Notes: generated from the sequence alone by a model not told the origin. A DNA stretch of 64,000 bases from an uncultured bacterium (GCA_963720265.1 CAVRET010000001.1:325916-389915); one strand, 5' to 3'. Counted from the first letter of the stretch, positions 17,626-56,538 are shown. Program-made: numbers and translations.

Positions 17626-17653
17626 TTAGCTGTACATGAGATGTGGAGTATAA

Positions 17654-31700: not shown

Positions 31701-33103
31701 CATACAGCTCAAATAATGGGACCTCTAGTACCTCATCTTTATCGGCTTCTTCAGCACCTGGGCAGGTTGTGTTCGATTATCTGGTTGTTTCAGCAACAGC
31801 CTCCACTACGCCCGCGACGACTCAATCGGGCCAGACGATGCTAAGTAGTGTCACCGACGCTGCTACGAATCTTATCCAGTTTGCCGACAGTGATAGGGCT
31901 GCGTCTTTGTCGAGTGGTAACACCACAATGGGTTGGAATAGTATGGCCAATGCGGGTGCAAACGGTTGGGTTGAGTCGTCTATTGGTCTTAATTCAACCA
32001 ATACGAACGTATCTGAAAACGTGACCTCCGCGGTCGCAAGTATAACCAACAACTGTACGGCTACGGGTAGTGGAGACAGCATCTGTGCGGATGCCTCGAA
32101 TGTGCTTAAGTTGAACCAGCAGTACTCGAATGCAACGGGTGCGGAGTTGCTGCTGCAGAGTGCAGGCACCGGTGACATGCTCGATACAGAAAATGCTGGC
32201 GGTACGATTCTTGACAAGATTATGGCTAATGGGAGTATCGTGATTGGGCCTTCCGGTGGAGGGTATACGCCGGCCACATTAACACTCGGTACTGGAACCG
32301 GCGCTGATCCAGCAGGCGTGGCCGGGGCCATGTATTACAATACAGCGCTTGATGAGTACCGGTGCTACGGCGACAATGGCGAGTGGTCACCATGCGGAAC
32401 GCTGCCGATTGATGCTAGTTATGATTTAAATGAAGACTTTTTGGGCGGGTCGGCGGTCGCTACAACAGCCACTACCGGCATCGGCAGTAATAACTGGACT
32501 GTGACAACGATTGGTACCGCCTGCACTTCGCTCGGCTATGGTGGCAGTGGCGGGCAGTACTTGGTTAGTGCTGCCAGGCCCGGGATATTGACTACGGCAA
32601 CATCCGCCACGAGCGGTGCCGGATGTACGGTGGCACTGGGTGGTGCTGCCGACATGAAAGTGGGGGCCGGGGAAGACATAAAGGCGTCGGTGGGGGTCAG
32701 TAGTGCTTCCGCCCATATTTACCGTGTGGGACTTCTGACTGAAACTAATTCGGCCACTGCGCCCAATTTCGGTGTGTGGTGGGAAGCCGACTCCGGTTCC
32801 GGCCACGCTGGCGCCACCGACTGGCAGTATTGCTACGGGACCGGGTCAGCTGTTACCTGCGGGGATAGTGGTATTGCTATTGGTACGCTGATATGGTATA
32901 GACTTGAGATTCAGATCGTAAGTGCCACGGCTATTAACTACTACATTAATGGCACACTGAAGCCGGTAACAGGCATTACTCTCGGGACGAGTACTGCAGT
33001 TGGTCCTGATATCGTTTGTGCCAATGACACCGGTACGGCTACGGCATTTAGCTGTAATACCGACTACTACCAGTTACGTGCGGATGATGGGGCGCTCAGG
33101 TAA
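19724..33103 (+). CDS. Giant secreted modular surface protein, 4459 aa from the GTG start (alternative ATG at 19775).
   Basis: Uninterrupted 13.4-kb ORF. N-terminal signal peptide (MRLTLIGVGLLLGSLAMLVPSTSKA). N-domain is paralogous to that of 34911..49142 (NFQGRLLTAAGAVVPDGSYNIEFKLYKNG ... KNGYFSVQLGSITALPS ... PMKQLGAAPYAINAANAN). Ten or more TAFQVQNASG-type punctuation motifs. Jelly-roll/CBM-like modules (YTYSIWVRAD...WQRFSVT...YAWGAQL). A Kelch-like propeller at 29.9-30.8 kb. A lectin-like C-terminal domain. Confidence 0.85.
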   Translation: MIYRSGIRRINKSVLPRMRLTLIGVGLLLGSLAMLVPSTSKASSSSVNGTINFQGRLLTAAGAVVPDGSYNIEFKLYKNGNGQSAGDSGGSPAGSLLWTEDWVYGTGSPDNRVVVKNGYFSVQLGSITALPSNLSLDESNLWLSMNIENPTGATLQCTGFSSNSPTGCSGGDGEMTPMKQLGAAPYAINAANANQVNSYGLSNNFLDLAAPSGISAANGSAGSVPGTVCYTVTATNANGETVATNNSGTVTPGGTHVVNVTWSQVTGATGYKIYRNTSCSFTSGSLFLTTITSGSITTYQDTATSTSAGLPPTTVTGGTVDIQAWSSQTSNLLQLQNSSGTNVLSVDPSGDTTVAGVITVAGGAAQDITTAGAATATAITIQPGTSSTASTGATLNLQGGNDSGTSGVTAGTVAIQGGNATGASGTRNGGNVTIDAGTGANANGSITIGGTASGTNTTGVTVNVATDATASGKTDTINIGTGNGAGGSGTAKAVNIASGTPGGTEINTVLIGSLANASTTTLQGGTSGTGIALTTGSGGTIALTAAGAGNVTVTATNASLNSSGVLNVVGGSAGFNIGGSTTTGNYLRNNGTNFVSSAIQYGDIPTCGGTCNYIGNQITTQSNANFNIKSAASSSVGGAIQGATSQTADLFDLRDSTGANLLSVSAAGNQELGGYEDVSGMGGFGSFGNLLLQSEALDQTGDWTASNITVTANNTVAPDGTTTAEKLAATVSGTHSMTQICTTGCTTNSVTYTYSIWVRADAANNPTNVQLRIDWNNGSGQTGTAATFSATTTWQRFSVTQAVSASGMVSVTPTLLVSTNSVTVYAWGAQLNLGSTPGVYEQTVLSQIIAGEGEALNGYLTIVSPSNGGITRIDGYGNMSLAGQLTTGDMATLNTYTTSDSALQAVQVGSGFTVPTAIIDGGTSPGAGADLLQLQSNGTPVARFNNAGNLFVASAINTQTGGGTLSVQTTGNGAITTGSGLLTDGGNLTVQGTTTTLGATGSANTLGFANTTAATGATIDFASTSVGIGNSLTVQGQTGAATDAGGAVNVYGGTGGTTGGGGLVTIQGGAASATSGSAGGGVDIYGANGTGTSTGGAGGSVAIQAGNGTSSGNNSGGNVTLQAGSASGSGATGSVVVKNAANSSTALQLQDTAGVDVLDGSTSTTNLVSQPDITGSTASSWAVKNGSSAPVGDTSNPYETTSSIKTVASGSTAYSGMQTSTFTSALVPNDYYQLTFWAKCSGTIGTFTFGRQDVSGTDINYTTTTCNTTWQQYWATWQAGGTLTSPNIYIDAGTPANATTIWVDGVTLNQVGGLATGPSNYQPGTVYIPGVIGSPVTFENSANSAGAFQVQNSAGANILNVNTSTSTVTVGSSGNDNVSLAVDNTDGTAAIEVRSGGSASYDTFVGVNSGANNALNVGSTQGYQNTGFGNGALQSNSTGSYNTGLGVYALNANHSGSDNTAVGNGALNVMNGGSDDDALGFQSQYDNSSGSYNVSIGSYSQYYIGGSDNTSLGYHSLTNSSDTTGADNTALGYNAASTDSASGFVSDLNLQNATAIGYDSEVQANNSFILGGQGSNAVNVGIGTTIPLNTLSVSPANYSTGTAEIASTGTTVTGSGTTWTNAMVGMQFIFMNGETGTITAVASTTSLTISASQAATGGFINYRIQTPGFNVTSNGAAFIQATNSSAFAVQNAQGESDLVANTTDSTNFILDSDMVLNSGTSLVDWSAVSSATVTQNTTPTDSYLGNTSMNLTTTNASSGQGATTTAFTPSLPTGSGTVYTVSFEAMMSTGTYAASNLKMIATGGGTPSCTGSASETINANGFQQVSCTWAADSGTISGLSILDQTANAMTMYIDDVQLQTGTAATAFNLGTLQLKGVITSPVAVQNVVNSTTALQVQNASGFNVLTVDTLDNSGQGQVILGAASHNNGALVFDNSTNSNTVSLVSGATSGSGYSLTLPTSGPTYNQCLQTGNSSTTQLQFGPCATANANLTKVAESDEHSGNALTFTPSKIGDEIVLFYSSTTASVTVSAMNTTSGTGVTTWTKVTSATGTKGDVDMWMGQVTGTGSTTVTATVTGSPSTFELTQIEYTTSGVSSGTVWQMTNSNTNYITVATTTVTWPSFVAPASQEAYVGYDSNVGGTPSTSGTGPFTYTLTGANNMWVYDSSTVYGSTYAPTTTVASSFPETIGGLLIAYNPSSISNSTATQVANFNVQAATSGSVAGLLQANAAGSGDILDLENGSGNLVDNVTSNGVLQVQSASGVNVLTADNTIDAVTLGGAAAPSYVNEWEANSTSGYPTISAFSPTTIGDVMVVAIKTVPGNKVTSVTDTDVSAWHYVTYNNGNVHEELWYGTITSTASTTMTFNSISGTPCTAGVSCEIVAEEFTAGLGANTNWFATTSNTTTTGSPSSTISFPSLKATVTNGLYWGFAYSGGTAGSCITGGFTCLTTPKGNDVIYDPTMVNGTTYSPTANNTSNVYDTLGMILVASTSNLNVVGTTQLNGAVTSPVVFANSVNSATAFQIQNASGADAFLVDNTNSGLVQSDDTLQIGPGSPGTTTPKFLYLSDVTSNGAGNPLIIGQWNSPGNWGIGPNSNANDNTLRLGVTTANGVNTWSTTQNVSLLVAGTLAVQPTSGNDSTSAFQVASSAGTNLVNVDTANGNVNLGISSSTPALGDTAGSGTADTVYANTIHAGRFQASYTGPITSISAYVGQGGLDGTNKLYQVALYTDTTCFGHQCPGTYIASSAQGTLSGSATWDTAAVSATVTAGTYYWLAYTSNSTITNDNTLSYNTAAAGSLDEETGFTFGSGPSNGFPTTFVYQPPQAGYSYSIYATYGSGYATTINSSGTLTQNAAAVFKDETSSATALQVQNTDGESVFQTGTTQAVDGITNYVADSEFALGSGACPLTDWSVVGSPTTCAQNTTAANSYEADTSLQLVTTASAGQGASTSTFTATPTTTSSGQGSIWTVSFYAEQTSGTTPITGANLTAATTGVVSSNTCTINGSTSTPLSATGFAQVVCTLTYSSGGNITGLTIETSGTVTADTIYLSNVQYQVGTATTGFVTAPQIGQLSLRGVINTPIEMQNNANSSTAFQIQNAGGNALVDVNSNNVNINTTSVNGTGLSTVNSAKEWSVLESTTVVANPATNSYTWTNGVSPHTVGNVMVMGIGIASTTFSVSSITGGGVTNWHKITANAPGTTDHTELWYGTVTSAGTTNVVINFSGTVNVPTELINQEFTAGLGAGTNWSVTTSGQQSNGSSTSMTFPSLTSGANGGIYVGYGNEAANNATVGTSPGFTFEPTPTNLDMYLYNPSLAANTVYQPIAGITGAAVSNVTGAILTASADNTFSTNGSTVVGGAASQTAFQVQNASGGSVFNVDSSNNIISLESGYSGTIGSWQPDTNSLPAIMGTGAAVAANGYVYEESGSNNGTVNGDLYSAKLNPDGTVGTWSAALTVPSTPVKFEATVATNGYIYELGGTNNGGTDQSTVQYAQILPNGTLGAWSTTTVLPALTSRAAAVAANGYIYVIGGDTAGGTTGSTIVYYGKVNADGTISNWTTGGALTAASRDIQAVYANGYIIAAGGGDGTNAQTTVQTSAVPAAGGANGAFSTTGDTALTGGRAQATMGVANGYVYVVGGRNTDSTNAPQTSTYYGQLNSAGQIGSWSSVSTADALPIPVFGHSMVTVNGYMIIMGGFNSSGTLVSGVYTATTARIAVDASLDLVGSSSGTLADGGDQSTGSSGGSLTAGNTNIVGSLQVADQADFNSNISVDGNLVQDGDSYENSSQTTGTAFTLTDSSLTTGTLATFTTGTSTTNLTSGNLVNVATVSAVQSAGSLVNVSNTANLVTSAGSDAANLVNVSRSLTATISGGTSNVPTVDPAGTGTGPESLNNTTGTNSWSNNFTVASHSNEILLVQVGYIATSCANYHLTSVTYNGTAMTLLSYNQMTNDCVGFYYLLAPTTGSAKALIVNSTASDNFTENISAWYNVNQTTPFTTVGGGAYSSNNGTSSTSSLSASSAPGQVVFDYLVVSATASTTPATTQSGQTMLSSVTDAATNLIQFADSDRAASLSSGNTTMGWNSMANAGANGWVESSIGLNSTNTNVSENVTSAVASITNNCTATGSGDSICADASNVLKLNQQYSNATGAELLLQSAGTGDMLDTENAGGTILDKIMANGSIVIGPSGGGYTPATLTLGTGTGADPAGVAGAMYYNTALDEYRCYGDNGEWSPCGTLPIDASYDLNEDFLGGSAVATTATTGIGSNNWTVTTIGTACTSLGYGGSGGQYLVSAARPGILTTATSATSGAGCTVALGGAADMKVGAGEDIKASVGVSSASAHIYRVGLLTETNSATAPNFGVWWEADSGSGHAGATDWQYCYGTGSAVTCGDSGIAIGTLIWYRLEIQIVSATAINYYINGTLKPVTGITLGTSTAVGPDIVCANDTGTATAFSCNTDYYQLRADDGALR

Positions 33104-34910: not shown

Positions 34911-37900
34911 GTGAGGAATTGGTCTCTGTACGGCGCTAGAACAAGTCGCCACGTTGTCCAAAACATGCTACGCATCTCCCTGGCTTTCGTTGCTGTAGGG
35001 CTTGTTTCGGTCTCGCTTTTGACAGCGGGCACAGCTCGCGCTACCTCAGGCACGATTAATGATACAATGAATTTCCAAGGGCGACTGCTGACGGCGGCCG
35101 GGGCAGTGGTGCCGGATGGAAATTACAACATTGAATTCAAGATTTACAAGAATGGTGACGGGCAGTCGACTGGGGACACAACCGGGAGCCCGTCCGGGAC
35201 GCTTTTGTGGACCGAGGATTGGCTTAATAACAACTCCGTAACGGCTAATACCATTCCTGTGGTGATCAAGAACGGCTACTTTTCGGTACAGCTGGGCTCG
35301 ATTACGACACTACCGAGTACCGTTACCTTGGACGAGAGCGTGCTGTGGCTGTCGATGACGGTGGCCGGTAGTGCGGGCGCGACCTCGACGAGCTGTACGA
35401 CGTTTTCGGCCTGTAACTCATCAGGTGAGCCGGAAATGCTGCCAATGAAATCGCTGTCGGCGGCGCCGTATGCGATTAACGCAGCTAACGCCAATACGCT
35501 GGGCGGGCTCACGAGCAGCCAGTTTATCCAAAACACCACCTCGCCGCAGTCGAGCGCGAACATCGACATTGCGTCCGGGAATGCGGCGGATCCGGCGGCC
35601 AAGCTTCAGCAGGCCTCGTCGGCCACGGCGCCGGTGCTCACACTGGAACTTGGCGGTTCACCGGGCGTTGGCGGCGATTTGCTCGATTTGCAGGACTCGA
35701 GCACTGCTGTGCTGGATAAGTTTGATTCGAGTGGGAATCTGACGCTTGGTAATAATTCCAATAAAACGATTTCGGTGGCGCCGGCAGCTTCTGGGGGCGG
35801 CAGCAGTCTGACACTCATGGCCGGTAATGGTGCGAGTGGTACAAATGCCGGCGGTAACCTGATACTTGAGGCGGGCGCCTCCACGGGCGGTGCGGCCGGC
35901 GGCAGCATTATTGTGAAGCCGCAGACTGATTCCACGACTGCTTTCCAGGTGGAGAATGCCTCAGGAGCTGCTCTCCTTACCGCTGACGCTGCTAACACTG
36001 CCATTGTTTTAGGCCAAGACACGACACCAACCAACCTAACGGTACGTGGTGGTATCGCATCCGGATCGAACGTCGGTGGCGGTAACATCACCTTCCAAGC
36101 TTCCAATGGTACGGGTGCTGCCGGTTCAGGGTCATTTGTCTTCCAGACCGCAGCTCCGGGCGGAGGTATTACGCTTGATAATACATCGTACACGGGTGGC
36201 AGCGGCAATATCACACTTAGCTTCACGACCGGCAGCGGTAGCAATCGATTGCTCATGGTACAAGCCGAGACCAATGCTAGCCGGTCCTTCAGTGGCATAA
36301 CCTACAACGGTGTGTCGATGACGCAAGTTGCCACTGAGAATTCTCTGACCAATGACGATGGCGTTGGGGCTCATGTGGAACTCTGGTATCTCGTGAATCC
36401 TGCCAGCGGTACCCATAACATCGTTGCTACCATGGTCGGTTCAGGTGCCGGTTCATTGGCTGCCGCCAGTTTTACTAACGTCAATCAGACGACACCGCTC
36501 GGCACAGCCGCGACCGGGAATGGTACGGCTTCGGGGACGCAGCAGAGCAGCCTGTCAGTGGCGACCTCGGCCGGACAATTGGTGATTGATGGGATTGGCA
36601 CTGACGTGCCGAGTTCAGGCGTGGGTGTTGATAGCCCGCCGGCCAGTGGCCAGACGCAATTATGGTATTCGGCCAATTCCCCCAGCCTTTATGGCGCCGC
36701 TGGATCGACGGCGCCGGGTACTGGTTCGACGGTATTCATGAAGTGGAACGTCACGAACGCTGACTGGGCCGATATCGCGGTTCCCATTAACCCGGCCTCG
36801 AATTCAACGGCCGATACTCTGAACAATGACCTGGTGATCGCAAACAGCGGGAACGTCGGGATCGACAACTCTAGCCCCCAGAATACGCTCGATGTGAGCG
36901 GCACGGCGAGGGTGCAGTCAACCACAAACTCGGCGACGGCTTTCCAAGTGCAGGATGCGAGTGGTTCAAGTTTGCTTGATGTCGATACGGCCAATACGGT
37001 GGTAAATGTTGGTACCGCCGGAAGTACCGCCGTCAATGTGGGCGGCACAGCGGGTTCGATTGGGCGAACTTCGATTGGGTCGGTACAGGATGTGGGTGCG
37101 AATAATCTGATCGTCGGTTATCAATATACTGCTCCTTCGACCGGAAGTATTGGCTCAATGTCGGCATATATTGGCGCAAACGTTCAGTCATCACCATACA
37201 ACCAATATCAATTTGCTTTGTATTCAGACAATGGCAGTAACGCGCCAAACGCGTATTTGGCTTCGTCGGCGGTCGGGACGGAGGCCGCGAATACCTGGAA
37301 CACCTTGCCAATCTCGTACAGTGTCACTTCAGGAACCAAATACTGGCTGGTTATGTGGACGAATACTACCAACTCAGCGGACAACGCGCCAAACGGAGAC
37401 ACTAATGTAGCGAGTTCATATGTTGCTTATACCACTGGCCAGACTTTTGGCAGTGGACCCGATAACGGTTTCCCCGCCACATTCCCTACGCCAACGTACG
37501 ACGCCAGCCAATACCCCGATAGCGTATATGCGAGCTACAATAGTACTTCCGGTCCGGCGGTGACCGTGAGCTCGACAGGTACTCTTGGTGTATATGGTTC
37601 GGCCATATTTGAGAGCGGCAGCGATTCAACCACCGCATTCCAGATCCAAAACGCCAGTGCCGCGAGCCTGTTTAATGTGGACACTTCAAACGATGTAGTC
37701 GACGTTGGCGCTACCGGAACCACAGGTCCGTCCACGACCGTCAATATTGGGACATCGTCGAATGCTGCTCAAACGGTAAACCTTGGGTCGACGGACGGCG
37801 CCAGCGCTACTACCATTCAGGGCGGTACTGGCAACGTGTCCATTAACACCGGAGCGGGTTCTGGCAGTACCGGCTCGATAACCGTCGAAAGCGGCAATTC

Positions 37901-40900
37901 ATCGGGCGGTGATTCGGGCAACATTACTGTCGATACCGGCACTAATTCGCCGGGCGGAACAGTGGTTGAGGACGACACGTTTGAGGGCAGCGGGACGGGT
38001 AGTGTTGACGGCTACACGAACAACGATTCGAGCGTAACGCCGACGGCCAGCAACACGACCGCTCACGGCGGCAGTTACAGCTTGAAGCTGACTGAGGCCG
38101 GGAGCTACTGGTACGCATTCAACGCTGGAACTCAGTCTGTCACCCCGGGCCATGTGTACGCGTTCTCGGCGTGGGTCAAGGCCGCTAGCACCAGCGAGAC
38201 AATGTCTGGCTATCTTTACTGGGCTTGTGGCGATGATACGTATCACGCTTGGGGATTCGCGACGGCCGTGTCGTCGGGTTGGACGCAAATGACCGGGACG
38301 CTCACGGCGCCGGCTGTGAATTCCGGCTGCAGCCCAGGCACTGAGACGGTGTCGATGGGTATTACGGACAATACCTTTGGTGGTTCGAGCGGCGAGATTC
38401 AGTACCTGGACGACGTGACCGTGACAGATGAAAGCTTGATTACTGAGCCATCGGTTGATATCGGTACTTCGAATGCGCAGGCTGTTAATATTGGCGGCAA
38501 CAACGCTGGCCAGTACGGCCCCACAACAGTTGAAGGCGGCGGGGGCATTAGTTTACTGGCAGGAACCGGCGCTTCGGTAAACATTGGCACTTCCAACTCG
38601 AATAATGTGACGGTTGGCGACGCCTCAGATATAGACTCGACGACGCTGCAGGGTGGAACGCTGGGAGTGTCCATTAACACGGGAGCGCAGTCTGGCACCA
38701 CCGGCGCGATTACCCTTGAATCGGGCAACTCGAGCGGCGGCGATTCCGGCAACGTCAATATTGACACCGGCACCAACTCGCCCGGCGGCACGCAGGTCCA
38801 GGACGACACGTTTGAGGGAAGTGGGTCAGGTAGTATGGACGGCTACGATAACAATGACGACGGCTTGAGTGCTATTTCGGCAAGTAATACCACTGCCCAC
38901 AGCGGCAGCTATAGCTTGAAGGTGACCGAGAGCTCGGCGTACTGGTTTGCAAATACCAGTGAGGACACAACCGTAACATCGGGGCACGTGTATGCCTTCT
39001 CAGCTTGGGTGAAAGCTGCCAGCACGGGGGAGTCAATAGATGCCAATGTGTACTGGGGCTGCAGTATAGGTGGCATTGTCCAATGGGGGTCAGCCACTTC
39101 CACTTCGTCCGGCTGGACGCAGATCACCGGTACCGCGACGGCGCCGGCTTTGTATCCCGGCTGCATCCCCGGTGACGAATTCGCGCAGCTTACTTTTGGT
39201 GGCATCGCCGGCACCAGCGGGCAGATCGAGTACATAGATGATGCGACGATAACAGATGAGAGCTCAATTACTGAGCCGTCGGTAAATATCGGGACATTGA
39301 ATGCGCAGGCCGTGAACATAGGCGGCAACAACGCTGGCCAGTACGGCCCCACAACAGTTGAAGGCGGCGGGGGCATTAGTTTACTAGCCGGGTCCGGCGC
39401 CCCGATAACCATTGGTACAGGCAACAGCAACAACGTGACAGTCGGCGACGCCTATGATGAAGACGCGACCACGCTGCAAGGCGGCAGCAACGGAGTGAGT
39501 ATCAATACCGGCGACAATTACGATGGTACCGGCTCGATCTCGATCACGACCGGAAATTCTACCAGCGACACGGCTGGCAACATTACCATTGATACCGGAA
39601 CGAGTACGTTCAGTGGGTCGCAGGTGGAGGACGACGACTTTGAGACTGGGACGGATACCTTTGGCTGTTGGTTTGGCTGCGTATCAGCCACCCAATCGGC
39701 GGCGGAGGCCCACGGCGGTTCCGACAGCTTGGCGGTGGCCGAAGATGGCAGCGGTTCGTGGGGTGTGATCGAGGGCTACCCTGGCGTGGCTGCCACCCCG
39801 GGACATGAATACGCCTTTACCGCCTGGGTGCGGGGCACGGCGGCGGAGACGGTTAGCGCCGACGCTTTTTTCCCAGGTTCCGTTGGCCCCGGTGACACCT
39901 ACGACACTGTGACCGATAGCACGAGCGGCTGGACTGAACTTACCGGCGATATGACTGCTCCGGTAGGAGCAACTAACGTATATCTTGGCTTCACCGGTGG
40001 CACCGCCGGCGGTGGGGCGACGGATTACATTGATGACATAACGATCACTGACCTTGGCACAGTTTCGGCGCCAAACATCGCAATTGGTGGGACTAATGCC
40101 CAGCAAGTCACCATCGGCAACGAGAACGAAGGCGGCTACACGAGTATATATGGCGGCGGCGACGGCATTTCGCTTCAAACGTCAAACGGCGGGACCGTTG
40201 CGCTCGGTACGGTAAACCAGTCCAATATTAGCATCGGCGCCGTTGGCAGCAGTACTGAAGATGACGTGGTGCAAATCGACGACACGTCGGGTGGCGGTAC
40301 GAGTATCGTGGACATTGGCGGCACCGCGACTAATGACGGCTCGGATACCGCCAGTACGGTTAACATTCAAGGTGGCCAAACCGGTCTCGTGGTAGCCAAT
40401 GCCGGTGCCACCCTTCAGACCTACACCGATTCCACTACCGCCTTACAGGTGCAAAACTCAAGCGGCGGCGATGTTCTAAACGTCGATACAACCGATGGCC
40501 AAGTCACAGCCGGTAACACCAATACTGCTCGAGCGGAACAGGAATGGGACTCGCACGGTACAAACCAAGCGACACTATCCGACGCGCCTCAGGCTGATGG
40601 CGATTTGCTGATGCTGGCCGTATCGATACCTTCGACCTCAGTTACTGTCTCGTCGGTGTCCGGTGGCGGCGTGAGCAGCTGGAGCAATGCGACTTCGTAC
40701 ACCGACAGCACGGTTGGTTACCGCACCGAGATTTGGGAAGGCACGGTGACCGGCGCCGGCGCCGGTACTATTACGGTCAACTATTCTTCAACGCCGGGGG
40801 GTGGTTGTGAGCTGGCCGCGCAAGAGTTTAGTGCCGGTGTGGGTGCTGGTTGGTCAGTTGTAGCCACTGGACATGCCGTTAATTCTTCGTCGACGACCGT

Positions 40901-43900
40901 CACATTCCCGTCGTTAACTGCTACTCAGACCGGCCAAATGTACTGGGGATACATGGGTGCCGAGCGTGTTGGGGCGGCCGGCAGTTACCCCGGTTTCTCG
41001 TACGTTCCTACCGGCTACCAGAATGTCATTGGCTACGATACAGATTTAGCTGAGGGTACGGTGTACACTCCGACAGCGTCCCAGTCGCCGGCCGGCACTT
41101 CGCTTGGCTCGGCGGTCATAATTTCGGTCACAGACGGTAACGCCCTGACGGTGAATGGGGCGGAGACCATTACCAACACAAACTCCATCAACGCCTTGCA
41201 GGTGCAAAACTCCGCCGGCACCAGCCTGCTGGGCATTGACACGGTTAACAGCCAGGAAACCATCGGCACCTCCGACACCACCACCTTCGGCAACACCTAC
41301 GATGCGGCTACCGCTCCCGAGGGCGGATTTGGCGCCGGCTACTACTGGGATGGCGTAAGCCAACAGGAACTCGTAGCGCAATCGTTTACGACTGCCGGAG
41401 GCGGGCCCTTATCTTCACTTTCGACTTATGTTGGCACCAACGGCATATCGAGTACCAACAAGCTTTACCAGATGGCAGTGTACTCTGACAACGCCGGCCA
41501 GCCGGGAACGTACATTGCGTCAACTGCCGTGGGCAATCTTGGTTCGTCAGCCGGTTGGAAAACCCTGCCCATTACGGCTACCTTGGCGTCGGACACGACC
41601 TATTGGCTCGTCTATTGGACGAACGTGAATGACAACAACAACAACGGTCAGGATATTATCAACACCTTGCGCGGTACATCCAATACCCAAATGTGGGGCA
41701 CTTATGAAAACTGGCAATGCTCGAGTGGTTGCGGGTCTAGTACCAATGGTATGCCAAATACCTATCCCACCAGCGGCAACAATACTACCAATGGCACCAT
41801 CGCCAGCATATATGCCACGTTCGCGAACAACTTGCCGGCATTGCAGATTGATTCCGCTGGCAATAGCATCCAGGATGGCACCGCTTTGTTCCAATCCCAA
41901 ACTGACTCTGACACCGCCTTGGTCGTCAATAACGCCGACGACCAGCCGGTACTGCAGGTGGCCACCACATTCAACGGCGTGGGCGTAGACTGCTCGCCGG
42001 ACGGGAACTACAACTTGACGGTGTGCGCCGGCGGCAATGGTAACGGCGGTGGTTTGTCTGACCTCGGCTATTCGTACCAGCTGCTGAACGTCCAGAACGA
42101 TGGCAACACATATTTGGGCGTCGACAGTATTAACGCCGATGTTCAATCGGGTGATTTGTCAGTAGGCAACTCGGTGAATAATCTCAACGGCCCCGGACTG
42201 TTGGTAAGCGACAACTTCGAGAGTGGGAACTTCAGCCTGTGGAGTGGCGGCTCATCCGGCGGTGAGTCCGTAACTACGTCTGAGGCTCACAGCGGCCGAT
42301 ACTCGGCCGAGACCAACGTGTCGAGCTCCACCGGCTATGCGCGTACCAGTTTCTCTTCTACCTCCACGACGTTTACTCTCAATGCCTGGGTCTGGGCACA
42401 CGTACTGCCAACGTCGGGTGAACTGCCATTGTTTACCTTGTACCAGGCGTCCACCCCAACCAACAAAGTCCAGCTGTACACGGATCAGAATGGATGCCTT
42501 GGCGTTATAAATGGTACGACCGACCTTGGCACAGACTCGTGCGGAACCTTTATTGGCGATGATGATTGGAACAACATCGCCATATCCATAAATCGCACTA
42601 CCGGTGAGATTGCACTCTACGCCGGCCTCGGTTATATGTACTACGGAGCTCAGGGATCAGACTATACCGGCCTCACTATCGGCTCGGGCTGGGACACGCT
42701 GGATATGGGTGTCACAAGCAGTAACACGGGGCAGTACTGGGTTGACGACCTGGCGTTTGGCACCGGCATTACGCCTTCTCTGGCCAACGGCCTCACCGTG
42801 CAAGATTCGCTTCACGCCAGTGGTAGCGCTACGTTCGGCGGCCAGGTTTTGGTGCAGCCGGCGTCGAACTCTGCCACCGCCTTCCAGGTCCAGAATGCCA
42901 GCGGCTACAGCGTATTGAGTGCCGACACTTCCAGCAACTCGGGGCAGGGCCAGGTGGTCTTGGGCAGTTCCAGCAATAATAATGGGACGCTGTTGTTTGA
43001 TAATTCGGCCGGTTCGAGCCAGGTGGGACTAGCTGTAACGTCGTCGAATACCAACACCTACACACTCGACCTGCCGATTGCCGTGCCTAGCACAAACCAG
43101 TGCCTGTTGTCCGGCTCAAGCACGCCGACACAGTTGACGTTCGGGTCGTGCGCTAGCGGGAGCGCGGGCATCAACAACCAAACCACGACCCAATCGAACG
43201 CCAACTTTAACATTCAATCGGCCGGGGCAGCGGACGTGGGCGGTGTTATTCAAGGTGCCAGCTCACAGACGGCCGACTTGCTTGACCTGCGCGATTCGGC
43301 TTCCGGCAACCTGGCAGTGGTGAGCGCGGCCGGCAACGAGGAGAGTTTGGGCTACATCGACAACGCCGGCATTGGCGGGATTGGCCAGTATGGAAACCTA
43401 CTGCTTGACAGCGAACAATTGGACCAAGGCGGCGTGTCGACGCCGCCTTGGTCGACCAACAGTGCGTCGTTGGTAGTAACTGCCAACAATACGACGGCAC
43501 CGGACGGCAATACCACAGCCGAGAAGCTCGCCGGTACTGGAAACGTGAACATTTCGCAATCTGAATCAACCTCCGCTGTCGCAACCACGTACACGTTTAG
43601 CGTGTGGTTGAAGCAGTCGAGTGGGGCGGGCACTAGCGGCTTGTGTATTTACAGCACCGCCGGCACTCCGTCGAGCTGTACGGCTACCGCGGTAACGCCC
43701 AATTCCACCGACTGGCAGCGGTTTAGCGTAACGCAAGCTGTAACCGGCAGCCCAACGGCGATTACGGCGGAGATTTTGCCGGGCAACGGCTCAACGGCCA
43801 CGATTTACGCCTGGGGCGCGCAGCTGGTGGTAGGCACGACTCCGGAAGTGTACACCCGCACTACGGCGGCGGCTGTTGCGGCTTCAAGCGGTGTGGTGAC

Positions 43901-46900: not shown

Positions 46901-49142
46901 CGATCATTACCAATTTGCCATCTATAGTGACAATGCCGGGTCGCCGAATACCTACATTGCGTCATCCGCTGTGGGTACCCTCACTTCGGTCGCGGGTTGG
47001 TACACGCTGCCCATTACAGCGACACTCGCACCCAGCACCACCTACTGGATAACGTACGCTGATAATAGTGGAAATGACGGCATTAATTACAATAGCGGCC
47101 CGGCCGGTTATTATGTTTGCAATACCACGTTCACTTTCCAGAGCGGCCCGGATAACGGTTTTCCGGCCTCCTACCCAGGGGGTGGCAGCTGTTATCCAAC
47201 CACCCAGGCCAGCATTTATGCAACTTTCAGTGGTGGTACGCAGTCGGCAGTAACGATTAACAGTCTCGGCAACCTCACCGATACCGGTACGGCCAACTTT
47301 GAGGATACAAACGATTCCACCACCGCTTTCCAGGTGCAAAACTCTTCGAACGCGGCGGTGCTGAATGTGGATACGACGAATCAGGCGCTTAGTGTGGAGG
47401 CGTCGAACTCCTCAAGCACCACGCCGACGCTTAATGTAATTCAATCGGGTACCGGCGACGCCACGCTTTCGATACAGGATGCGGGGGCGAATTTCTACCA
47501 AGGCGTAAATGCCAACAATGGCAATGCCTTCACGATTAACTCCCAGTACGCTGCCACGCACAACTCGGATCTGGGTGAAGATTTCGAGTCCAGCGTGCCA
47601 AACGGCGATGACCAAAACTCCAGCTGGGCTGAGGCAACCGAGTTTACCGCCAGTTCTACCGGGACAATGTCGTCAATCAATGTGGCCTTTGATAGTCGAA
47701 TTAACTCCAGCAGTGTATTTTCGGTCGCTGTTTACTCAAATAACGCCGGCGCACCGGGTACGCTGTTGGGTTCATACAGCGGCACCCAGGTGATTCAGGT
47801 TCCGAACCCGGGGACGCTAAACATCAACTGGAATAACATTACACTGAATTCACCGGTGAGCGTCACGAGCGGTACGATCTATTGGCTCGCCTTCCAGGTG
47901 AACGACTCTTCAACGTTTGATGGCATTACTACTGGCGGTTTAAGCGCGTATCGGAGCGGCATCACCCCCGGGACCTGGGCTAACTGGAGCAGTATGGGCA
48001 CGAGCCAAGGCAATAGTACGGTTATAAACGGCGTGTATGCGGTGATTGATTCCAGTACATTGAGCGATACGTACGCAAACGGGCTGTTTTCGCTATCAAC
48101 GGCGGGTGCCGCGACGTTCCAGGGTGTTGCCGACTCGACCTCGGCTCTGACAGTGAAGAATGCGTCGGGCATACAGGTACTTAATGTCGATACGGCCAAC
48201 AGCAGCATTACGGTTAATAGCGCGGTAAACTCACCGGTGGCGTTCCAGGTCCAGAATCAATCAAATAACGACATTTTGACGGTTGACACAACCGATTCAC
48301 GAGTGGAAGTGGGTCCGAGCGGCGGAGGCACAACCGCTACATTATTGGTGCTGGGCATAAAGACCAGTTCCGGCGACCCAGCCGGTGTGACAGGGGCGAT
48401 GTATTATAACTCGAATACGGGTACATTCCGGTGCTACCAGAACAGTGCGTGGGTGAACTGTATTGCCACCGGACTTGGATCGTACCAGGTGCTCACCAGT
48501 ACCTCTGCCAACAGCACCTATACCACACCGGCCAATACCAAAGCGATTATGGTTGAGATGTGGGGTAGCGGTTCGGCGGGTGGTGGTGGCGGAGGCACTA
48601 CGGGTGATGGAGCTGCCGGTGCAGGGGGTGGGGCCGGTGGATACGCCCGCAAGGTTATCGTGGGTCCGGCCTCAACCTATAAGTACACGATCGCGGCCGG
48701 CGGTACTGCAGGTACAGCGGGTAACAACGCCGGTAACGCTCCGGGTTCCGCGAACTGTTTCGGTACCAACTCGACCGCTTGCAGCTCGCCGATTATTAGC
48801 TGCGCCGCCTCCACAGGCGGCGCCGGCATGGCCGCCGGTACAACCAATGCGGGGAGTACCGGCGGAGCCGGAGGCGCATGCACTGGAGGCGATCTCAACA
48901 CTACCGGGGCAGCGGGGCGAAACGGCTCGAGATGGTCTCAGACCGTGGCCCTATCGGGAGGTGGCGGAGGTACCCTCTTTGGTGACGGCGGATCTGGTAT
49001 TGGGCTGCAAGGGACCGGTATTACCGCTGGTAGTACCGTCTACGGCGCGGGCGGCGGCGGGGGCGTAGTGATCAACAGCGCTACTGCTACGGCCGGAGGT
49101 GCTGGGGCACAGGGCGTGATTATCGTTTGGGAATTTAAGTAA
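34911..49142 (+). CDS. Giant secreted modular surface protein, 4743 aa (alternative ATG start at 34965).
   Basis: Uninterrupted 14.2-kb ORF. Signal peptide MLRISLAFVAVGLVSVSLLTAGTARA. N-domain paralogous to giant 1. Three tandem ~276-aa CBM4_9-like modules (DDTFEGSG...AHGGSYSL...GHVYAFSAWVKA...SGWTQMTG...YLDDVTVTDE) carry a 66-bp perfect DNA repeat. Ancient internal duplication of an ~330-aa segment. 14 or more punctuation motifs. Gly-rich C-terminal tail. Confidence 0.85.
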   Translation: MRNWSLYGARTSRHVVQNMLRISLAFVAVGLVSVSLLTAGTARATSGTINDTMNFQGRLLTAAGAVVPDGNYNIEFKIYKNGDGQSTGDTTGSPSGTLLWTEDWLNNNSVTANTIPVVIKNGYFSVQLGSITTLPSTVTLDESVLWLSMTVAGSAGATSTSCTTFSACNSSGEPEMLPMKSLSAAPYAINAANANTLGGLTSSQFIQNTTSPQSSANIDIASGNAADPAAKLQQASSATAPVLTLELGGSPGVGGDLLDLQDSSTAVLDKFDSSGNLTLGNNSNKTISVAPAASGGGSSLTLMAGNGASGTNAGGNLILEAGASTGGAAGGSIIVKPQTDSTTAFQVENASGAALLTADAANTAIVLGQDTTPTNLTVRGGIASGSNVGGGNITFQASNGTGAAGSGSFVFQTAAPGGGITLDNTSYTGGSGNITLSFTTGSGSNRLLMVQAETNASRSFSGITYNGVSMTQVATENSLTNDDGVGAHVELWYLVNPASGTHNIVATMVGSGAGSLAAASFTNVNQTTPLGTAATGNGTASGTQQSSLSVATSAGQLVIDGIGTDVPSSGVGVDSPPASGQTQLWYSANSPSLYGAAGSTAPGTGSTVFMKWNVTNADWADIAVPINPASNSTADTLNNDLVIANSGNVGIDNSSPQNTLDVSGTARVQSTTNSATAFQVQDASGSSLLDVDTANTVVNVGTAGSTAVNVGGTAGSIGRTSIGSVQDVGANNLIVGYQYTAPSTGSIGSMSAYIGANVQSSPYNQYQFALYSDNGSNAPNAYLASSAVGTEAANTWNTLPISYSVTSGTKYWLVMWTNTTNSADNAPNGDTNVASSYVAYTTGQTFGSGPDNGFPATFPTPTYDASQYPDSVYASYNSTSGPAVTVSSTGTLGVYGSAIFESGSDSTTAFQIQNASAASLFNVDTSNDVVDVGATGTTGPSTTVNIGTSSNAAQTVNLGSTDGASATTIQGGTGNVSINTGAGSGSTGSITVESGNSSGGDSGNITVDTGTNSPGGTVVEDDTFEGSGTGSVDGYTNNDSSVTPTASNTTAHGGSYSLKLTEAGSYWYAFNAGTQSVTPGHVYAFSAWVKAASTSETMSGYLYWACGDDTYHAWGFATAVSSGWTQMTGTLTAPAVNSGCSPGTETVSMGITDNTFGGSSGEIQYLDDVTVTDESLITEPSVDIGTSNAQAVNIGGNNAGQYGPTTVEGGGGISLLAGTGASVNIGTSNSNNVTVGDASDIDSTTLQGGTLGVSINTGAQSGTTGAITLESGNSSGGDSGNVNIDTGTNSPGGTQVQDDTFEGSGSGSMDGYDNNDDGLSAISASNTTAHSGSYSLKVTESSAYWFANTSEDTTVTSGHVYAFSAWVKAASTGESIDANVYWGCSIGGIVQWGSATSTSSGWTQITGTATAPALYPGCIPGDEFAQLTFGGIAGTSGQIEYIDDATITDESSITEPSVNIGTLNAQAVNIGGNNAGQYGPTTVEGGGGISLLAGSGAPITIGTGNSNNVTVGDAYDEDATTLQGGSNGVSINTGDNYDGTGSISITTGNSTSDTAGNITIDTGTSTFSGSQVEDDDFETGTDTFGCWFGCVSATQSAAEAHGGSDSLAVAEDGSGSWGVIEGYPGVAATPGHEYAFTAWVRGTAAETVSADAFFPGSVGPGDTYDTVTDSTSGWTELTGDMTAPVGATNVYLGFTGGTAGGGATDYIDDITITDLGTVSAPNIAIGGTNAQQVTIGNENEGGYTSIYGGGDGISLQTSNGGTVALGTVNQSNISIGAVGSSTEDDVVQIDDTSGGGTSIVDIGGTATNDGSDTASTVNIQGGQTGLVVANAGATLQTYTDSTTALQVQNSSGGDVLNVDTTDGQVTAGNTNTARAEQEWDSHGTNQATLSDAPQADGDLLMLAVSIPSTSVTVSSVSGGGVSSWSNATSYTDSTVGYRTEIWEGTVTGAGAGTITVNYSSTPGGGCELAAQEFSAGVGAGWSVVATGHAVNSSSTTVTFPSLTATQTGQMYWGYMGAERVGAAGSYPGFSYVPTGYQNVIGYDTDLAEGTVYTPTASQSPAGTSLGSAVIISVTDGNALTVNGAETITNTNSINALQVQNSAGTSLLGIDTVNSQETIGTSDTTTFGNTYDAATAPEGGFGAGYYWDGVSQQELVAQSFTTAGGGPLSSLSTYVGTNGISSTNKLYQMAVYSDNAGQPGTYIASTAVGNLGSSAGWKTLPITATLASDTTYWLVYWTNVNDNNNNGQDIINTLRGTSNTQMWGTYENWQCSSGCGSSTNGMPNTYPTSGNNTTNGTIASIYATFANNLPALQIDSAGNSIQDGTALFQSQTDSDTALVVNNADDQPVLQVATTFNGVGVDCSPDGNYNLTVCAGGNGNGGGLSDLGYSYQLLNVQNDGNTYLGVDSINADVQSGDLSVGNSVNNLNGPGLLVSDNFESGNFSLWSGGSSGGESVTTSEAHSGRYSAETNVSSSTGYARTSFSSTSTTFTLNAWVWAHVLPTSGELPLFTLYQASTPTNKVQLYTDQNGCLGVINGTTDLGTDSCGTFIGDDDWNNIAISINRTTGEIALYAGLGYMYYGAQGSDYTGLTIGSGWDTLDMGVTSSNTGQYWVDDLAFGTGITPSLANGLTVQDSLHASGSATFGGQVLVQPASNSATAFQVQNASGYSVLSADTSSNSGQGQVVLGSSSNNNGTLLFDNSAGSSQVGLAVTSSNTNTYTLDLPIAVPSTNQCLLSGSSTPTQLTFGSCASGSAGINNQTTTQSNANFNIQSAGAADVGGVIQGASSQTADLLDLRDSASGNLAVVSAAGNEESLGYIDNAGIGGIGQYGNLLLDSEQLDQGGVSTPPWSTNSASLVVTANNTTAPDGNTTAEKLAGTGNVNISQSESTSAVATTYTFSVWLKQSSGAGTSGLCIYSTAGTPSSCTATAVTPNSTDWQRFSVTQAVTGSPTAITAEILPGNGSTATIYAWGAQLVVGTTPEVYTRTTAAAVAASSGVVTNGGVLINSLSSSDTPVTVNSSTGVSTLKIADSGATTFKSSTNSTTAFQIQNASGEALLTADTTNTALVLGQDNTPTDLTVRGGAASGPNVDGGDITFQASNGTGAAGSGSLIFQTAPPAGGGVTEDNSGTSTASACSTATLSFTTGSGSNRLLLVGAETGAGETYTAVTYNGTSMTQLSTQDSGTTHIELWYLLNPASGAHNIVGTLSSTLHGCTLDAVSYANVNQVTPFGTAATNSGTTTGLQSTSNTVSTTSAAQVVFDVLGADVSESIAPGSGQTQLVNFPGTGGFYPLGESSAPGTGAAVNMNWAVNSADWADIGVPINPVANSTADTLQTVLDLANTGNVGIDNSNPQETLDVAGTANFQNTTNSTTAFQVQNASGANLLTADTTNNQILLGSDTNLILSGTTAYISNPQGYGDSEAFGAGASVTSSNATAVGYNASSYYDGAAVGDNAAAGGYGVALGYDAAATYVGTAVGSESDASGNYSTAVGGGAVAGSNYATALGYLAAANSADSIALGAGSVTSSANQLVIGSSTANGAYIQDAYIGSGISDIAPQSITVHATGGSGSNVAGANLSLAGGIGTGNANGGNINLQVAKPGVSGSSANTLATVASISGLNGSALFQNSTDSTAAFQVQNASGTNLLGVDTFDSTVSLGEAGSVGGSVYGKTDIGGTAGFGYYDGTSDVLAAQQFKATGGGTISSLSTYIGMVKSSPNNQGQMAIYADNGSNAPGSYIASTGVHTLTANSWNTWSITDGTASLTTGSEYWLVYWTNDDAIDGDNAQYLDTGQAGQLGYLSDYGSGVSFGTGPNNGMPATIPGGTVLSGAYFSIYATYGGSTAVPVTIGADGSVTALGAATFGDYLDSTTAFQVQNAAGANLLGIDTSGDNVNVGSTGSTALAGTINVGTSTGAAQTVNVGSNDGASATTIQGGTGNVNVLSTANITLGQTSTNAGGTLGYTGIGSNGNGCSGGCNITASMFTTTSGGTVGTMSVYVSSPASGDHYQFAIYSDNAGSPNTYIASSAVGTLTSVAGWYTLPITATLAPSTTYWITYADNSGNDGINYNSGPAGYYVCNTTFTFQSGPDNGFPASYPGGGSCYPTTQASIYATFSGGTQSAVTINSLGNLTDTGTANFEDTNDSTTAFQVQNSSNAAVLNVDTTNQALSVEASNSSSTTPTLNVIQSGTGDATLSIQDAGANFYQGVNANNGNAFTINSQYAATHNSDLGEDFESSVPNGDDQNSSWAEATEFTASSTGTMSSINVAFDSRINSSSVFSVAVYSNNAGAPGTLLGSYSGTQVIQVPNPGTLNINWNNITLNSPVSVTSGTIYWLAFQVNDSSTFDGITTGGLSAYRSGITPGTWANWSSMGTSQGNSTVINGVYAVIDSSTLSDTYANGLFSLSTAGAATFQGVADSTSALTVKNASGIQVLNVDTANSSITVNSAVNSPVAFQVQNQSNNDILTVDTTDSRVEVGPSGGGTTATLLVLGIKTSSGDPAGVTGAMYYNSNTGTFRCYQNSAWVNCIATGLGSYQVLTSTSANSTYTTPANTKAIMVEMWGSGSAGGGGGGTTGDGAAGAGGGAGGYARKVIVGPASTYKYTIAAGGTAGTAGNNAGNAPGSANCFGTNSTACSSPIISCAASTGGAGMAAGTTNAGSTGGAGGACTGGDLNTTGAAGRNGSRWSQTVALSGGGGGTLFGDGGSGIGLQGTGITAGSTVYGAGGGGGVVINSATATAGGAGAQGVIIVWEFK

Positions 49143-49155
49143 GGCAGGCCGCCGT

Positions 49156-49770
49156 CTATTTGCTGAGCGACTGGATGATCGCACTTAAGCTGGGGCTTGA
49201 CGAGCTGGTTGTTGCGCTGAGATTTATCAGCGTGGTGCTCGTTAATACCATTGCCAGGGGAAGATTTGATGGGCCGGTTCCCTGTACGGCTTGACCAACT
49301 GGTGTGGTGACGGTGTGAAAATTGGCGGGTAGCGTCAGCGAACCGCCAGCTGAAATTCCCGCTGGTACTTGGACCTGTTGGGGTTGGGTGAGGGCCGAAA
49401 GATTCGGCGGGTTGGCCGGCTTTGTTTGCTCAGATATCTCGATCGTGGCGTTGGCCGAGCGGAGTGAGAAGAACACCACGCCATTTTGCAATGTCGGCGA
49501 AGCGGTGTCGAAGTGCCAGCCGGCCGGCAGCGGGCGCGGGTAGTAGATCGGGCAGTCGGCGAGCTTTACGATGGCCGACGGCGGGCCAGGCAGGTTGCTT
49601 ATGGCATACCAGCCGATTAGTGCTATGGCGCCGCTGGCAGCTGTAATGCCGGCTGCAAATAATATATGGCGTATTGAGGGCAAGAATCGTTTGCTAGGCC
49701 GGCGTCGAAGGACGCGCAGGCGCTGTTCAAGCTCGTCGGGGCCGCGCTCGGGAATAAAACGTTCAATCAT
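49156..49770 (-). CDS. Small membrane-anchored partner protein convergent with giant gene 2.
   Basis: Start set at MIERFIPERGPDELEQRLRVLRRRP; the longer ORF extension overlaps two tRNAs. TM segment ILFAAGITAASGAIALIGWYAI. Ser/Thr-rich extracytoplasmic domain. Confidence 0.65.
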   Translation of the reverse strand: MIERFIPERGPDELEQRLRVLRRRPSKRFLPSIRHILFAAGITAASGAIALIGWYAISNLPGPPSAIVKLADCPIYYPRPLPAGWHFDTASPTLQNGVVFFSLRSANATIEISEQTKPANPPNLSALTQPQQVQVPAGISAGGSLTLPANFHTVTTPVGQAVQGTGPSNLPLAMVLTSTTLINLSATTSSSSPSLSAIIQSLSK

Positions 49771-49948
49771 CGGTGGTTTTATTTTAGCATTGTGATCGAT
49801 GTCTGGTTGTTGTTTGGTATCATGAGATCGATATGATGCCGTACATTGGCGAATGAAGGATTTGCTCGATGAGCAGTGTGGGGACGCTTGAGTACCACAA
49901 GCGCCGAATCCGGCGGCTGGAGAAAATCCGAACGTGGTAAATAATTCC

Positions 49949-50034
49949 TGGTGCCGGGTGAGAGATTCGAACTCCCGAAGACTAATGTCAGCTGATTTAC
50001 AGTCAGCCCTCGTTGGCCACTTGAGTAACCCGGC
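49949..50034 (-). tRNA. tRNA-Tyr (anticodon GTA), type II with long variable arm, CCA encoded.
   Basis: GCCGGGTTACTCAAGTGGCCAACGAGGGCTGACTGTAAATCAGCTGACATTAGTCTTCGGGAGTTCGAATCTCTCACCCGGCACCA. Confidence 0.8.
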
Positions 50035-50110
50035 ATAATATTTGACTAGAAAATTGTACCCCGATTCTGTGCCTGCAACAAGGACACGACGCGGAGCTGC
50101 ATATAAAACA

Positions 50111-50186
50111 ATGGAGCCACCTGTCGGATTCGAACCGACGACCTTCACTTTACAAAAGTGCTGCTCTAGCCGCTGAGCTAAGGTGG
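50111..50186 (-). tRNA. tRNA-Thr (anticodon TGT), CCA encoded.
   Basis: GCCACCTTAGCTCAGCGGCTAGAGCAGCACTTTTGTAAAGTGAAGGTCGTCGGTTCGAATCCGACAGGTGGCTCCA. One G.A mismatch at 27:43. Confidence 0.75.
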
Positions 50187-50192
50187 CGTGTA

Positions 50193-54847: not shown

Positions 54848-54907
54848 CGCTTGAGGCCCGGCTTTCGTCGCTCTTTTGCGCGTGGGTCGCGAGTTGACAA
54901 GCCGGCC
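54848..54907 (-). repeat. Direct repeat copy C: a ~60-bp duplicate of the 3' end of the rpsI coding sequence.
   Basis: On the minus strand it reads AGLSTRDPRAKERRKPGLKR, matching uS9 residues AGLLTRDPREKERQKPGLKR, then diverges into the WhiB-like start region. Aligns to 57425..57483. Confidence 0.8.
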
Positions 54908-56445: not shown

Positions 56446-56538
56446 AGCGCTTGGAGAACCGTGACGCTTTGCGGGCGCGCTTGTGGCCCGGCTTCCGTCA
56501 CTTTTTTTGCGCGTTGGTTGCGAGTTAATAGGCCGGCC
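56446..56538 (-). repeat. Direct repeat copy B: a ~93-bp duplicate of the 3' end of rpsI.
   Basis: ~85% identical to 57393..57483. On the minus strand it encodes *RKPGHKRARKASRFSKR*, versus real uS9 ...QKPGLKRARKASQFSKR*. Confidence 0.85.

Follow-up and report, generated by a model that had tools for sequence, protein, structure and literature searches.

A giant fibre-like protein of a Saccharimonadales bacterium with three tandem CBM-superfamily units and a 65-bp tract shared by two of them

Tandem units in the giant ORF g2

The window analyzed in this study is a 64,000-nucleotide (64-kb) stretch of DNA from an uncultured bacterium (GCA_963720265.1 CAVRET010000001.1:325916-389915), which contains two giant open reading frames (ORFs; referred to as g1 and g2), and the focus here is an array of three tandem units (M1, M2, and M3) inside g2, each containing a carbohydrate-binding module (CBM) of the Pfam family CBM_4_9 (PF02018). 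The source of g2 is a Saccharimonadales (Saccharibacteria/TM7) bacterium. The window is bacterial chromosome and encodes SecY, RpoA, DNA polymerase III delta' (holB), a pseudouridine synthase, TrkA, and four tRNAs, so that g2 is located among housekeeping genes and outside any prophage. The features of the array are as follows, with unit scores from a hidden Markov model (HMM) built from M1-M3.

34911-49142, + strand: giant ORF 2 (g2) in the ORF list, 4,743 amino acids (aa), rich in Gly, Ser, Thr, Asn, and Ala
37869..38699, + strand: unit M1, 277 aa; unit HMM 487 bits; Pfam CBM_4_9 42.4 bits
37959..38435, + strand: CBM core of M1, a beta-jelly-roll (AlphaFold model, Foldseek)
38493..38557, + strand: copy A of the 65-bp repeat, in the M1 linker; encodes GGNNAGQYGPTTVEGGGGISL
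38700..39527, + strand: unit M2, 276 aa; unit HMM 464 bits; Pfam CBM_4_9 32.0 bits
38790..39263, + strand: CBM core of M2 (Pfam 32.0 bits; alignment columns)
39321..39385, + strand: copy B of the 65-bp repeat, in the M2 linker; period of 828 from copy A
39528..40350, + strand: unit M3, 274 aa, diverged; unit HMM 368 bits; Pfam CBM_4_9 45.1 bits
39618..40058, + strand: CBM core of M3 (Pfam 45.1 bits; alignment columns)

A direct-repeat analysis detected DNA repeats at a spacing of 828-834 bp with 73-78% identity across 37.8-39.5 kb. The unit HMM recognized exactly three copies in g2 (277, 276, and 274 aa), in agreement with an earlier note on this DNA that had described three consecutive modules of ~276 aa, and none in g1 or in 29 related genome loci. 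In the layout of M1, a short pre-CBM shaft segment is followed by the CBM core and then by a linker; the cassette therefore combines a beta-jelly-roll of ~160-175 aa with a Gly/Asn/Thr-rich segment of ~100-115 aa that resembles the rest of the fibre shaft. Amino acid identity between M1 and M2 was 60-68%, depending on the span, and that of M3 to either was ~38-40%. Motifs assigned to every module by the earlier note were all present in M1, slightly off in M2 (AHSGSYSL), and clearly diverged in M3 (DDDFE, AHGGSDSL, GHEYAFTAWVR, SGWTELTG, and YIDDITITDL). Since the differences between units were concentrated in loops, with conserved core strands, fine specificity may vary among the three tiers. 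Antisense ORFs (63-174 aa) under the unit region were without support and look like GC-rich shadow ORFs.

CBM assignment and putative sugar binding

PF02018, the gathering score of which is 25.9 bits, matched the whole of g2 with 76.6 bits in 3 stretches and each of the separate units above that score (42.4, 32.0, and 45.1 bits for M1, M2, and M3, respectively); the assignment to CBM4_9 in the earlier note thus stood, both in Pfam and in the predicted fold, which matched CBM22, CBM16, and CBM4. When a profile of the CBM core was compared with PDB sequences, matches were obtained to CBM22 (1dyo and 2w5f; E values of 2e-4 to 6e-4), CBM4 (1gui and 1k42) and CBM16 (2zex) (E values of 3e-3 to 4e-2), and the phage central fibre 8zdo. 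In the AlphaFold monomer model, covering aa 940-1300 of g2, the core (model residues 78-237) was all-beta with 10 strands and a predicted local distance difference test (pLDDT) score of ~80-90. Foldseek ranked CBM22 first against the PDB (2w5f, 4xup, and 4xuo; E ~1e-9; template modeling score of 0.73-0.76 normalized by target), followed by CBM16 and CBM4. M1-M3 are CBM-superfamily modules, and the model favours a fold closest to CBM22 within the CBM4/9/16/22 superfamily, with small margins. Furthermore, a Trp residue aligned with W53 of Clostridium thermocellum CBM22-2, which we take from the CBM22 literature to be a ligand-cleft residue, is invariant in M1, M2, and M3.

The tandem CBM22 modules of xylanases (CBM22-1/CBM22-2 of Paenibacillus barcinonensis Xyn10C, 4xup; C. 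thermocellum Xyn10B, 1dyo and 2w5f) share with the g2 modules the fold, the Pfam family, the DxFE and YxDD edge-strand motifs, the W53-aligned Trp, and the tandem layout. In contrast to these enzymes, the g2 modules have no glycoside hydrolase, belong to a fibre of 4,743 aa, and have ~100 aa of Gly/Asn/Thr-rich shaft between them. When the model of unit 1 was compared with viral models, the best matches were CenC-like CBM domains of phage minor tail/tail fibre proteins, and many of the phages concerned infect Actinobacteria. Such CenC-like CBMs (Arthrobacter, Gordonia, and Mycobacterium phages; also the central fibre gp20, 8zdo, and the K2-2 tailspike, 8iq9) represent the same fold in a fibrous receptor-binding protein and are common in minor tail/tail fibre proteins of actinophages, and the C-terminus of g2 likewise matches tail-fibre PHROGs; however, g2 is chromosomal and has its CBM repeated three times.

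Alternatively, the jelly-roll modules might lack sugar binding and serve as structural spacers or protein-binding knobs. Jelly-rolls of the CBM4/9 type also occur in proteins without sugar binding (MAM-like and cyclase proteins were among the Foldseek matches), the Pfam scan of g2 detected no family other than CBM_4_9 and no adjacent glycoside hydrolase domain, and the ligand-binding residues of M1-M3 are predicted at most. However, at the sequence level every unit matches the CBM_4_9 family itself with a score above the threshold, all of the best structural matches are CBMs that bind ligands, the Trp equivalent to the CBM22 cleft residue is invariant, and phage tail proteins use the same fold for binding to glycan receptors. 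A spacer or protein-binding role is therefore unlikely, and a putative carbohydrate-binding function of M1-M3 is preferred.

The 65-bp identical tract and the age of the array

The 65-bp tract goes far beyond what chance would give: no other exact direct repeat in the window reaches its length, and those ranked next are of 23, 23, and 20 nt. The earlier note had given an identity of 66 bp with a period of 828; the period was correct, but the identity ends one base earlier, since the copies have G (38558) and A (39386) at the next position, a synonymous difference in a Leu codon. Only two copies of the 65-mer were found, even when 3 mismatches were allowed, and none occurred in 100 shuffles. 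In both units, the tract belongs to the Gly/Asn/Thr-rich linker, ~60 nt downstream of the CBM core and outside the sugar-binding part, a position that the earlier note had not given.

The tract covers 21 successive identical codons. Among 272 aligned codons of M1 and M2, 189 encode identical residues, 101 of which use the same codon; outside the tract, the same codon was found at 80 of 168 conserved residues, and the chance of 21 same codons in a row is 0.476^21 (~2e-7), or ~3e-5 when corrected for start positions. The proportions of synonymous (pS) and nonsynonymous (pN) differences between M1 and M2, estimated by the Nei-Gojobori method, were 0.58-0.68 (synonymous divergence, dS, ~1.1-1.7) and 0.07-0.25, respectively, outside the tract, and both were 0 across the 21 tract codons, while overall DNA identity was ~0.70. 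Third-position mismatches abut the tract on both sides (38483, 38486, 38489, and 38492; 38558, 38561, and 38564). Because the boundaries are this sharp and ~60% of synonymous sites differ outside them, we interpret the tract as most probably a short gene-conversion patch of recent origin over an old duplication, and not as the trace of a recent duplication.

The closest homologue of g2 is P0115, the gene for which is located at 9390-18143 of a 129-kb nanopore contig (L031) and is preceded by a 645-aa ORF with the shared N-terminal domain; the gene is hence split in L031. P0115 carries five units (U1-U5). Its aa 833-2007 are colinear with aa 930-2111 of g2 (70.6% identity), and its last 313 residues show 88% aa identity to g2. 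The pairwise values for the units are as follows.

M2-U4: 87% aa identity, DNA identity 0.86, pS 0.37
M3-U5: 78% aa identity, DNA identity 0.77, pS 0.52
M1-M2: 68% aa identity, DNA identity 0.69, pS 0.60
M1-U3: 60% aa identity, DNA identity 0.61, pS 0.72

By sequence comparison, M2 is the one-to-one orthologue of U4, and M3 that of U5. There are no counterparts of U1 and U2 in g2, while M1 has an M2-type CBM, with two small insertions and a Cys pair common to M1, M2, and U4 only, and U3-like ends. These comparisons indicate that the array was remodelled between the g2 and L031 lineages (three versus five units), and the pairwise divergences that the split of M1 and M2 predates that of the lineages. 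M1-M3 are old duplicates, since the synonymous sites of M1 and M2 are near saturation and another genome contains a one-to-one orthologue each of M2 and M3. The recent intragenic duplication offered by the earlier note was therefore not upheld, because M1 and M2 have a DNA identity of ~70% and a dS of 1.1-1.7, above the divergence of M2 from its orthologue (pS 0.37). Its other suggestion, gene conversion, agrees with the sharp edges of the tract and the absence of synonymous changes inside it, with pS ~0.6 on either side. Inside the tract, M1 equals M2, whereas M2 and U4 of L031 are ~0.8 identical; the conversion is therefore younger than the split from the L031 lineage. A conversion direction from M2 to M1, initially taken from the comparison with P0115, was withdrawn after the sliding-window and dS analysis, in which M1 had no clean orthologue and U3 was only 60% identical.

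The identity of the tract might be an artefact of assembly or polishing, in which reads of one unit "corrected" the other or a chimeric path through the repeat was taken. The gene is long and repetitive, nearly all of its relatives in short-read metagenome-assembled genomes are fragments not exceeding 434 aa, the homologous gene on the nanopore contig L031 is broken into two ORFs, and another relative, P0116, has six perfect 234-aa repeats that are possibly artefactual themselves. However, right up to the tract, almost every third base of the flanks is different, and therefore reads of M2 would map better to M2 than to M1. Furthermore, both units have unique flanks, the 14.2-kb ORF is intact, and an identical tract can cause misassembly but is not made by an assembler. 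We consider an artefact improbable for these reasons.

Selection at the nucleotide level, acting for example on RNA structure, a regulatory site within the gene, or a signal for recombination, might also hold the tract identical: the identity at all 21 synonymous sites is compatible with strong constraint as well, and a 29-nt exact repeat joins the starts of U3 and U4 in the L031 homologue. However, the RNA fold of the 65-mer was ordinary (z = 0.39; 126 of 200 shuffles folded at least as well), which ruled out RNA structure as the cause, and there was no Rfam match in the region, the scan of the 64-kb window giving tRNAs only. In addition, the tract of U4 is ~20% off that of M2, and M3, U3, and U5 differ more; the 65-mer is thus conserved neither among units nor among lineages. 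Nucleotide-level selection is thus very unlikely, and gene conversion remains the preferred explanation.

Diversity-generating retroelements (DGRs) are common in candidate phyla radiation (CPR) bacteria, where their targets are large surface proteins. The repeat pair sits in a surface protein and might thus be the template/variable pair of a DGR. However, the two copies do not differ, adenine is not favoured among the flanking mismatches (bases of M1: A, 9; T, 24; C, 16; and G, 15), both copies are in frame within one gene, and no reverse transcriptase turned up among the ORFs scanned. The absence of adenine bias ruled this origin out, and we give it next to no weight beside a gene-conversion patch.

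DNA identity to L031 was particularly high in one block: 48323-49796, comprising the tip of g2 and ~650 nt past its stop codon, was 93.4% identical to L031 17324-18797, with exact matches of up to 107 nt, while the g2 gene outside the tip was ~66-76% identical. This block of tip and neighbouring gene reflects either strong constraint or recent exchange.

Cassette family, fibre-like architecture, and neighbouring genes

In an exhaustive HMMER search of 1.84 billion representative proteins, 2,855 proteins matched at E<=1e-3, 519 at E<=1e-10, and 56 at E<=1e-30. The module had appeared nearly unique in word-indexed searches (one match for one unit and seven for the CBM profile), which was an artefact of the index in view of the HMMER result. 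Exact look-ups of g2 and of a TrkA protein encoded nearby gave no match. Many of the matched proteins were very large with 2-11 matched stretches (1-11 in the whole family), and the best matches contained the same cassette of CBM and linker as tandem arrays of 2-5 units at a spacing of 240-300 aa, including the following.

P0115: 2,917 aa, 5 units
P0117 (HSW80461.1, [quoted passage not shown]): 2,082 aa, 5 units
P0116: 5,201 aa, 4 units
P0118: 4,923 aa, 3 units
P0119: 1,346 aa, 3 units
P0120: 1,578 aa, 3 units

Two family proteins bear organism names (P0117 and P0123), both Saccharimonadales. The multi-CBM proteins of Saccharimonadales (P0117, P0115, P0116, and P0118) share with g2 the CBM subtype, the linker, and the 240-300 aa spacing, but differ in the number of units (3 in g2, 5 in P0115 and P0117, and 2-4 elsewhere), and several have other N- or C-terminal domains. 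The array of g2 is a well-supported but fairly ordinary member of a cassette family that is common in Saccharimonadales and already generically annotated. On the other hand, none of the reported relatives carries a 65-bp identical tract, and the longest exact repeat between units of L031 was 29 nt (U3/U4). Since the closest homologue has five units and g2 three, the cassette number appears to change over evolutionary time by gain and loss of units. The expansion and contraction of the array proposed in the earlier note is accordingly supported between lineages only (5 versus 3 units; 1-11 stretches), and variation within a population, or a role of the tract as its cause, would be speculative.

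An HMM of the CBM alone detected no copy in the 29 related genome loci; the CBM_4_9 domains found by Pfam in three of them (L001, L003, and L010) belong to another subtype (NPSFE..GW) and are not orthologues of M1-M3. The six tandem 234-aa repeats of P0116 (aa 680-2083; 1.9-Mb contig) were 100% identical between the adjacent copies compared, and represent either a very recent tandem amplification or an assembly artefact. P0001, among the closer matches to the CBM core in the word-indexed search (34% identity), is a C-terminal fragment (L030 1-621) that ends a 4-kb contig binned as Acidimicrobiaceae. The hosts of Saccharibacteria are known from the phylum Actinobacteria, but the sequence similarity is too weak to speak for or against transfer.

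The ends of g2 have the following features.

34911..35540, + strand: signal peptide (hydrophobic ISLAFVAVGLVSVSLLTAG, then ARA/T; read from the sequence) and a conserved domain of ~160 aa (N-domain)
48369..49139, + strand: C-terminal Gly-rich domain, phage tail fibre-like (PHROGs; P0115 has a matching C-terminus with 88% aa identity)

Over their first 200 aa, g1 and g2 were 58% identical (19724-20300 of the window in g1). The N-domain was also found in the 29 genome loci (L001-L029), almost all from Candidatus Saccharimonadales or Saccharibacteria, where it begins ORFs of ~500 to >3,600 aa, and in 107 database proteins, all fragments named "hypothetical" and without a Pfam domain; to judge from its sequence, it defines an un-annotated family of large Saccharimonadales proteins. 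These relatives have the N-domain and, as a mosaic, scattered internal modules in common with g2, but otherwise differ in their internal and C-terminal modules; other CBM_4_9 subtypes or Kelch or LVIVD domains are present in some of them and absent from others. The NCBIfam model NF053851 (Bdello_MAT_N, "mosaic adhesive trimer family chimeric fiber protein"; MAT), with a cut-off of 60 bits, was matched at E<=0.01 by 58 of 73 members of the N-domain family, all below the cut-off, which indicates remote homology to MAT_N, as read from the profile scores, and not membership. At the other end, the last ~260 aa of g2 matched phrog_863 (E 3.6e-22) and also the tail fibre families phrog_454 and phrog_6202, and the body between contains 12 "STTAFQVQN..LL.VDT.N" shaft motifs.

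MAT fibres of Bdellovibrio bacteriovorus are trimeric, surface-located, and mosaic, and bind prey glycans (PMC10769870). We liken g2 to these long surface fibres of a bacterium living at the expense of other bacteria (PMC10769870), because both families have a conserved N-terminal domain, mosaic swappable binding domains, and phage tail-fibre-like features. In contrast to MAT, g2 is ~4-5 times longer, its putative lectin modules are in tandem within the shaft and not only at the C-terminal tip, and its N-domain scores below the curated cut-off; the trimer is established for MAT, while g2 was modelled as a monomer only, and glycan binding was demonstrated for MAT and is likely for g2 as read from sequence and model. 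The term Saccharibacteria was not found in the main text or in the supplementary files searched of the MAT paper (PMC10769870).

In the mechanism that we propose, g2 would be secreted via its N-terminal signal peptide, with the MAT_N-like domain near the cell as an anchor, and would form a long fibre that, to judge from MAT proteins and phage tail fibres, would probably be trimeric. From this fibre, the CBMs would project as lateral lectin knobs, allowing multivalent binding of host cell-envelope glycans, possibly with different specificities among the three tiers owing to the loop differences. The 65-bp tract would be long enough for homologous recombination leading to an in-frame deletion or duplication of 828 bp (276 codons). 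Multivalent binding of host cell-wall glycans is the likely role of g2. Cultivated Saccharibacteria live on Actinobacteria, and, to our knowledge, host recognition by Saccharibacteria and other Patescibacteria is largely unknown beyond type IV pili. In Saccharibacteria, several adhesins are essential for epibiotic growth by transposon sequencing (Tn-seq), and homologous recombination occurs (PMC10633639).

Several results weigh against this account. M1 has no clean orthologue in the one close homologue at hand, which limits how far the array's history and the orientation of the conversion can be read; the N-domain of g2 reached at best 36.8 bits (E 3e-9) against NF053851, below the 60-bit cut-off; the linkers flanking the core were modelled at a pLDDT below 50 in the AlphaFold monomer; identity to characterized CBMs was only 15-21%; and a single cleft residue (the Trp) could be mapped onto M1-M3. 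Because of the last two points, carbohydrate binding by M1-M3 is regarded as putative. In spite of these points, we consider it reasonably probable that g2 is a secreted fibre with an old triplet of CBM and linker, a 65-bp conversion patch, and binding to host glycans.

A tandem CBM array with a small conversion tract is, taken alone, ordinary biology. On the basis of the account above, g2 is a concrete candidate for host recognition, as a secreted, tail-fibre-like giant with three lectin-type modules, and the recurrence of the same cassette in variable number across Saccharimonadales makes for a testable hypothesis. The conversion patch and the difference between three and five units show that the array is plastic in evolution. 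Among the additional results, the remote resemblance of the Saccharibacteria giants to MAT and tail fibres is the one of greatest interest. A more far-reaching proposal is that g2-type giants are true MAT homologues, that the cassettes set host range, and that conversion tracts seed in-frame gain and loss of lectin tiers. This proposal is doubtful; if true, a "bacterium-hunting" fibre system would be shared by two unrelated host-dependent lineages, and an epibiont would retune its host recognition within populations through gain and loss of lectin tiers.

Additional repeats were observed in the giant genes. A 31-nt motif (consensus ATTCCACCACCGCCTTCCAGGTGCAGAATGC, encoding STTAFQVQNA) occurs at 16 sites in 23751-47344, in both genes and with 68-94% identity, and marks the start of each shaft segment. 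An internal duplication in g2 (aa 328-800 and 3027-3500; nt ~35892-37310 and 43989-45410; 55-65% aa identity) holds a domain "YNGV.MTQ...WYLVNP..GTHN" also present in P0115, P0116, and P0118. A different beta-rich insert ("...GTMSVYVSSPASGDHYQFAIYSDNAGSPNTYIASS...TTYWITY") at aa ~3960-4110 (nt ~46788-47240) follows a shaft segment paralogous to that before M1; similar inserts were found in P0116, P0117, P0118, and P0120, with no match in Pfam. In g1, a repeat at 29942-30282 (period of 156 nt, 3 copies, 72-90% identity) is located upstream of matches to Kelch motifs (aa ~3673-3699), and this part is shared with the relatives L010 and L013.

Two further features of the giant genes are listed here.

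19724-33103: giant ORF 1 (g1) in the ORF list, 4,459 aa
34834..34861, + strand: promoter-like site TTGCGA-16-TATAAT upstream of g2 (consensus scan, 10/12 matches; weak evidence)

The number of promoter-like sites in the consensus scan was not above the expectation from shuffles. Beside the stop codon of g2, a listed ORF on the minus strand (49156-50148, 330 aa, no Pfam match) overlaps tRNA-Tyr (49949-50034) and tRNA-Thr (50112-50187), and is therefore too long as listed or spurious; a shorter version of 204 aa is present in L031, within the highly conserved block. Another minus-strand ORF (4066-5202), without a match in Pfam, contains a tandem repeat at 4202-4301 with a period of 12/18 (GGTGACGGCGAT...) and 5-8 copies. 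Three copies of a 60-nt repeat (54848-54907, 56479-56538, and 57425-57484; 60-90% identity; spacing of ~0.9-1.6 kb) and a further pair (56446-56508 and 57393-57455) are situated downstream of the TrkA gene region. Directly upstream of g1, the gene at 17654-19642 (+ strand) encodes a phage tailspike-like protein with a pectate-lyase-type beta-helix (PF12708 and PF13229), a BppL_N baseplate motif, and DUF5907, together with weak PHROG matches to pre-neck appendage and virion structural proteins; its product may be a surface glycan-degrading partner of the giant fibres.

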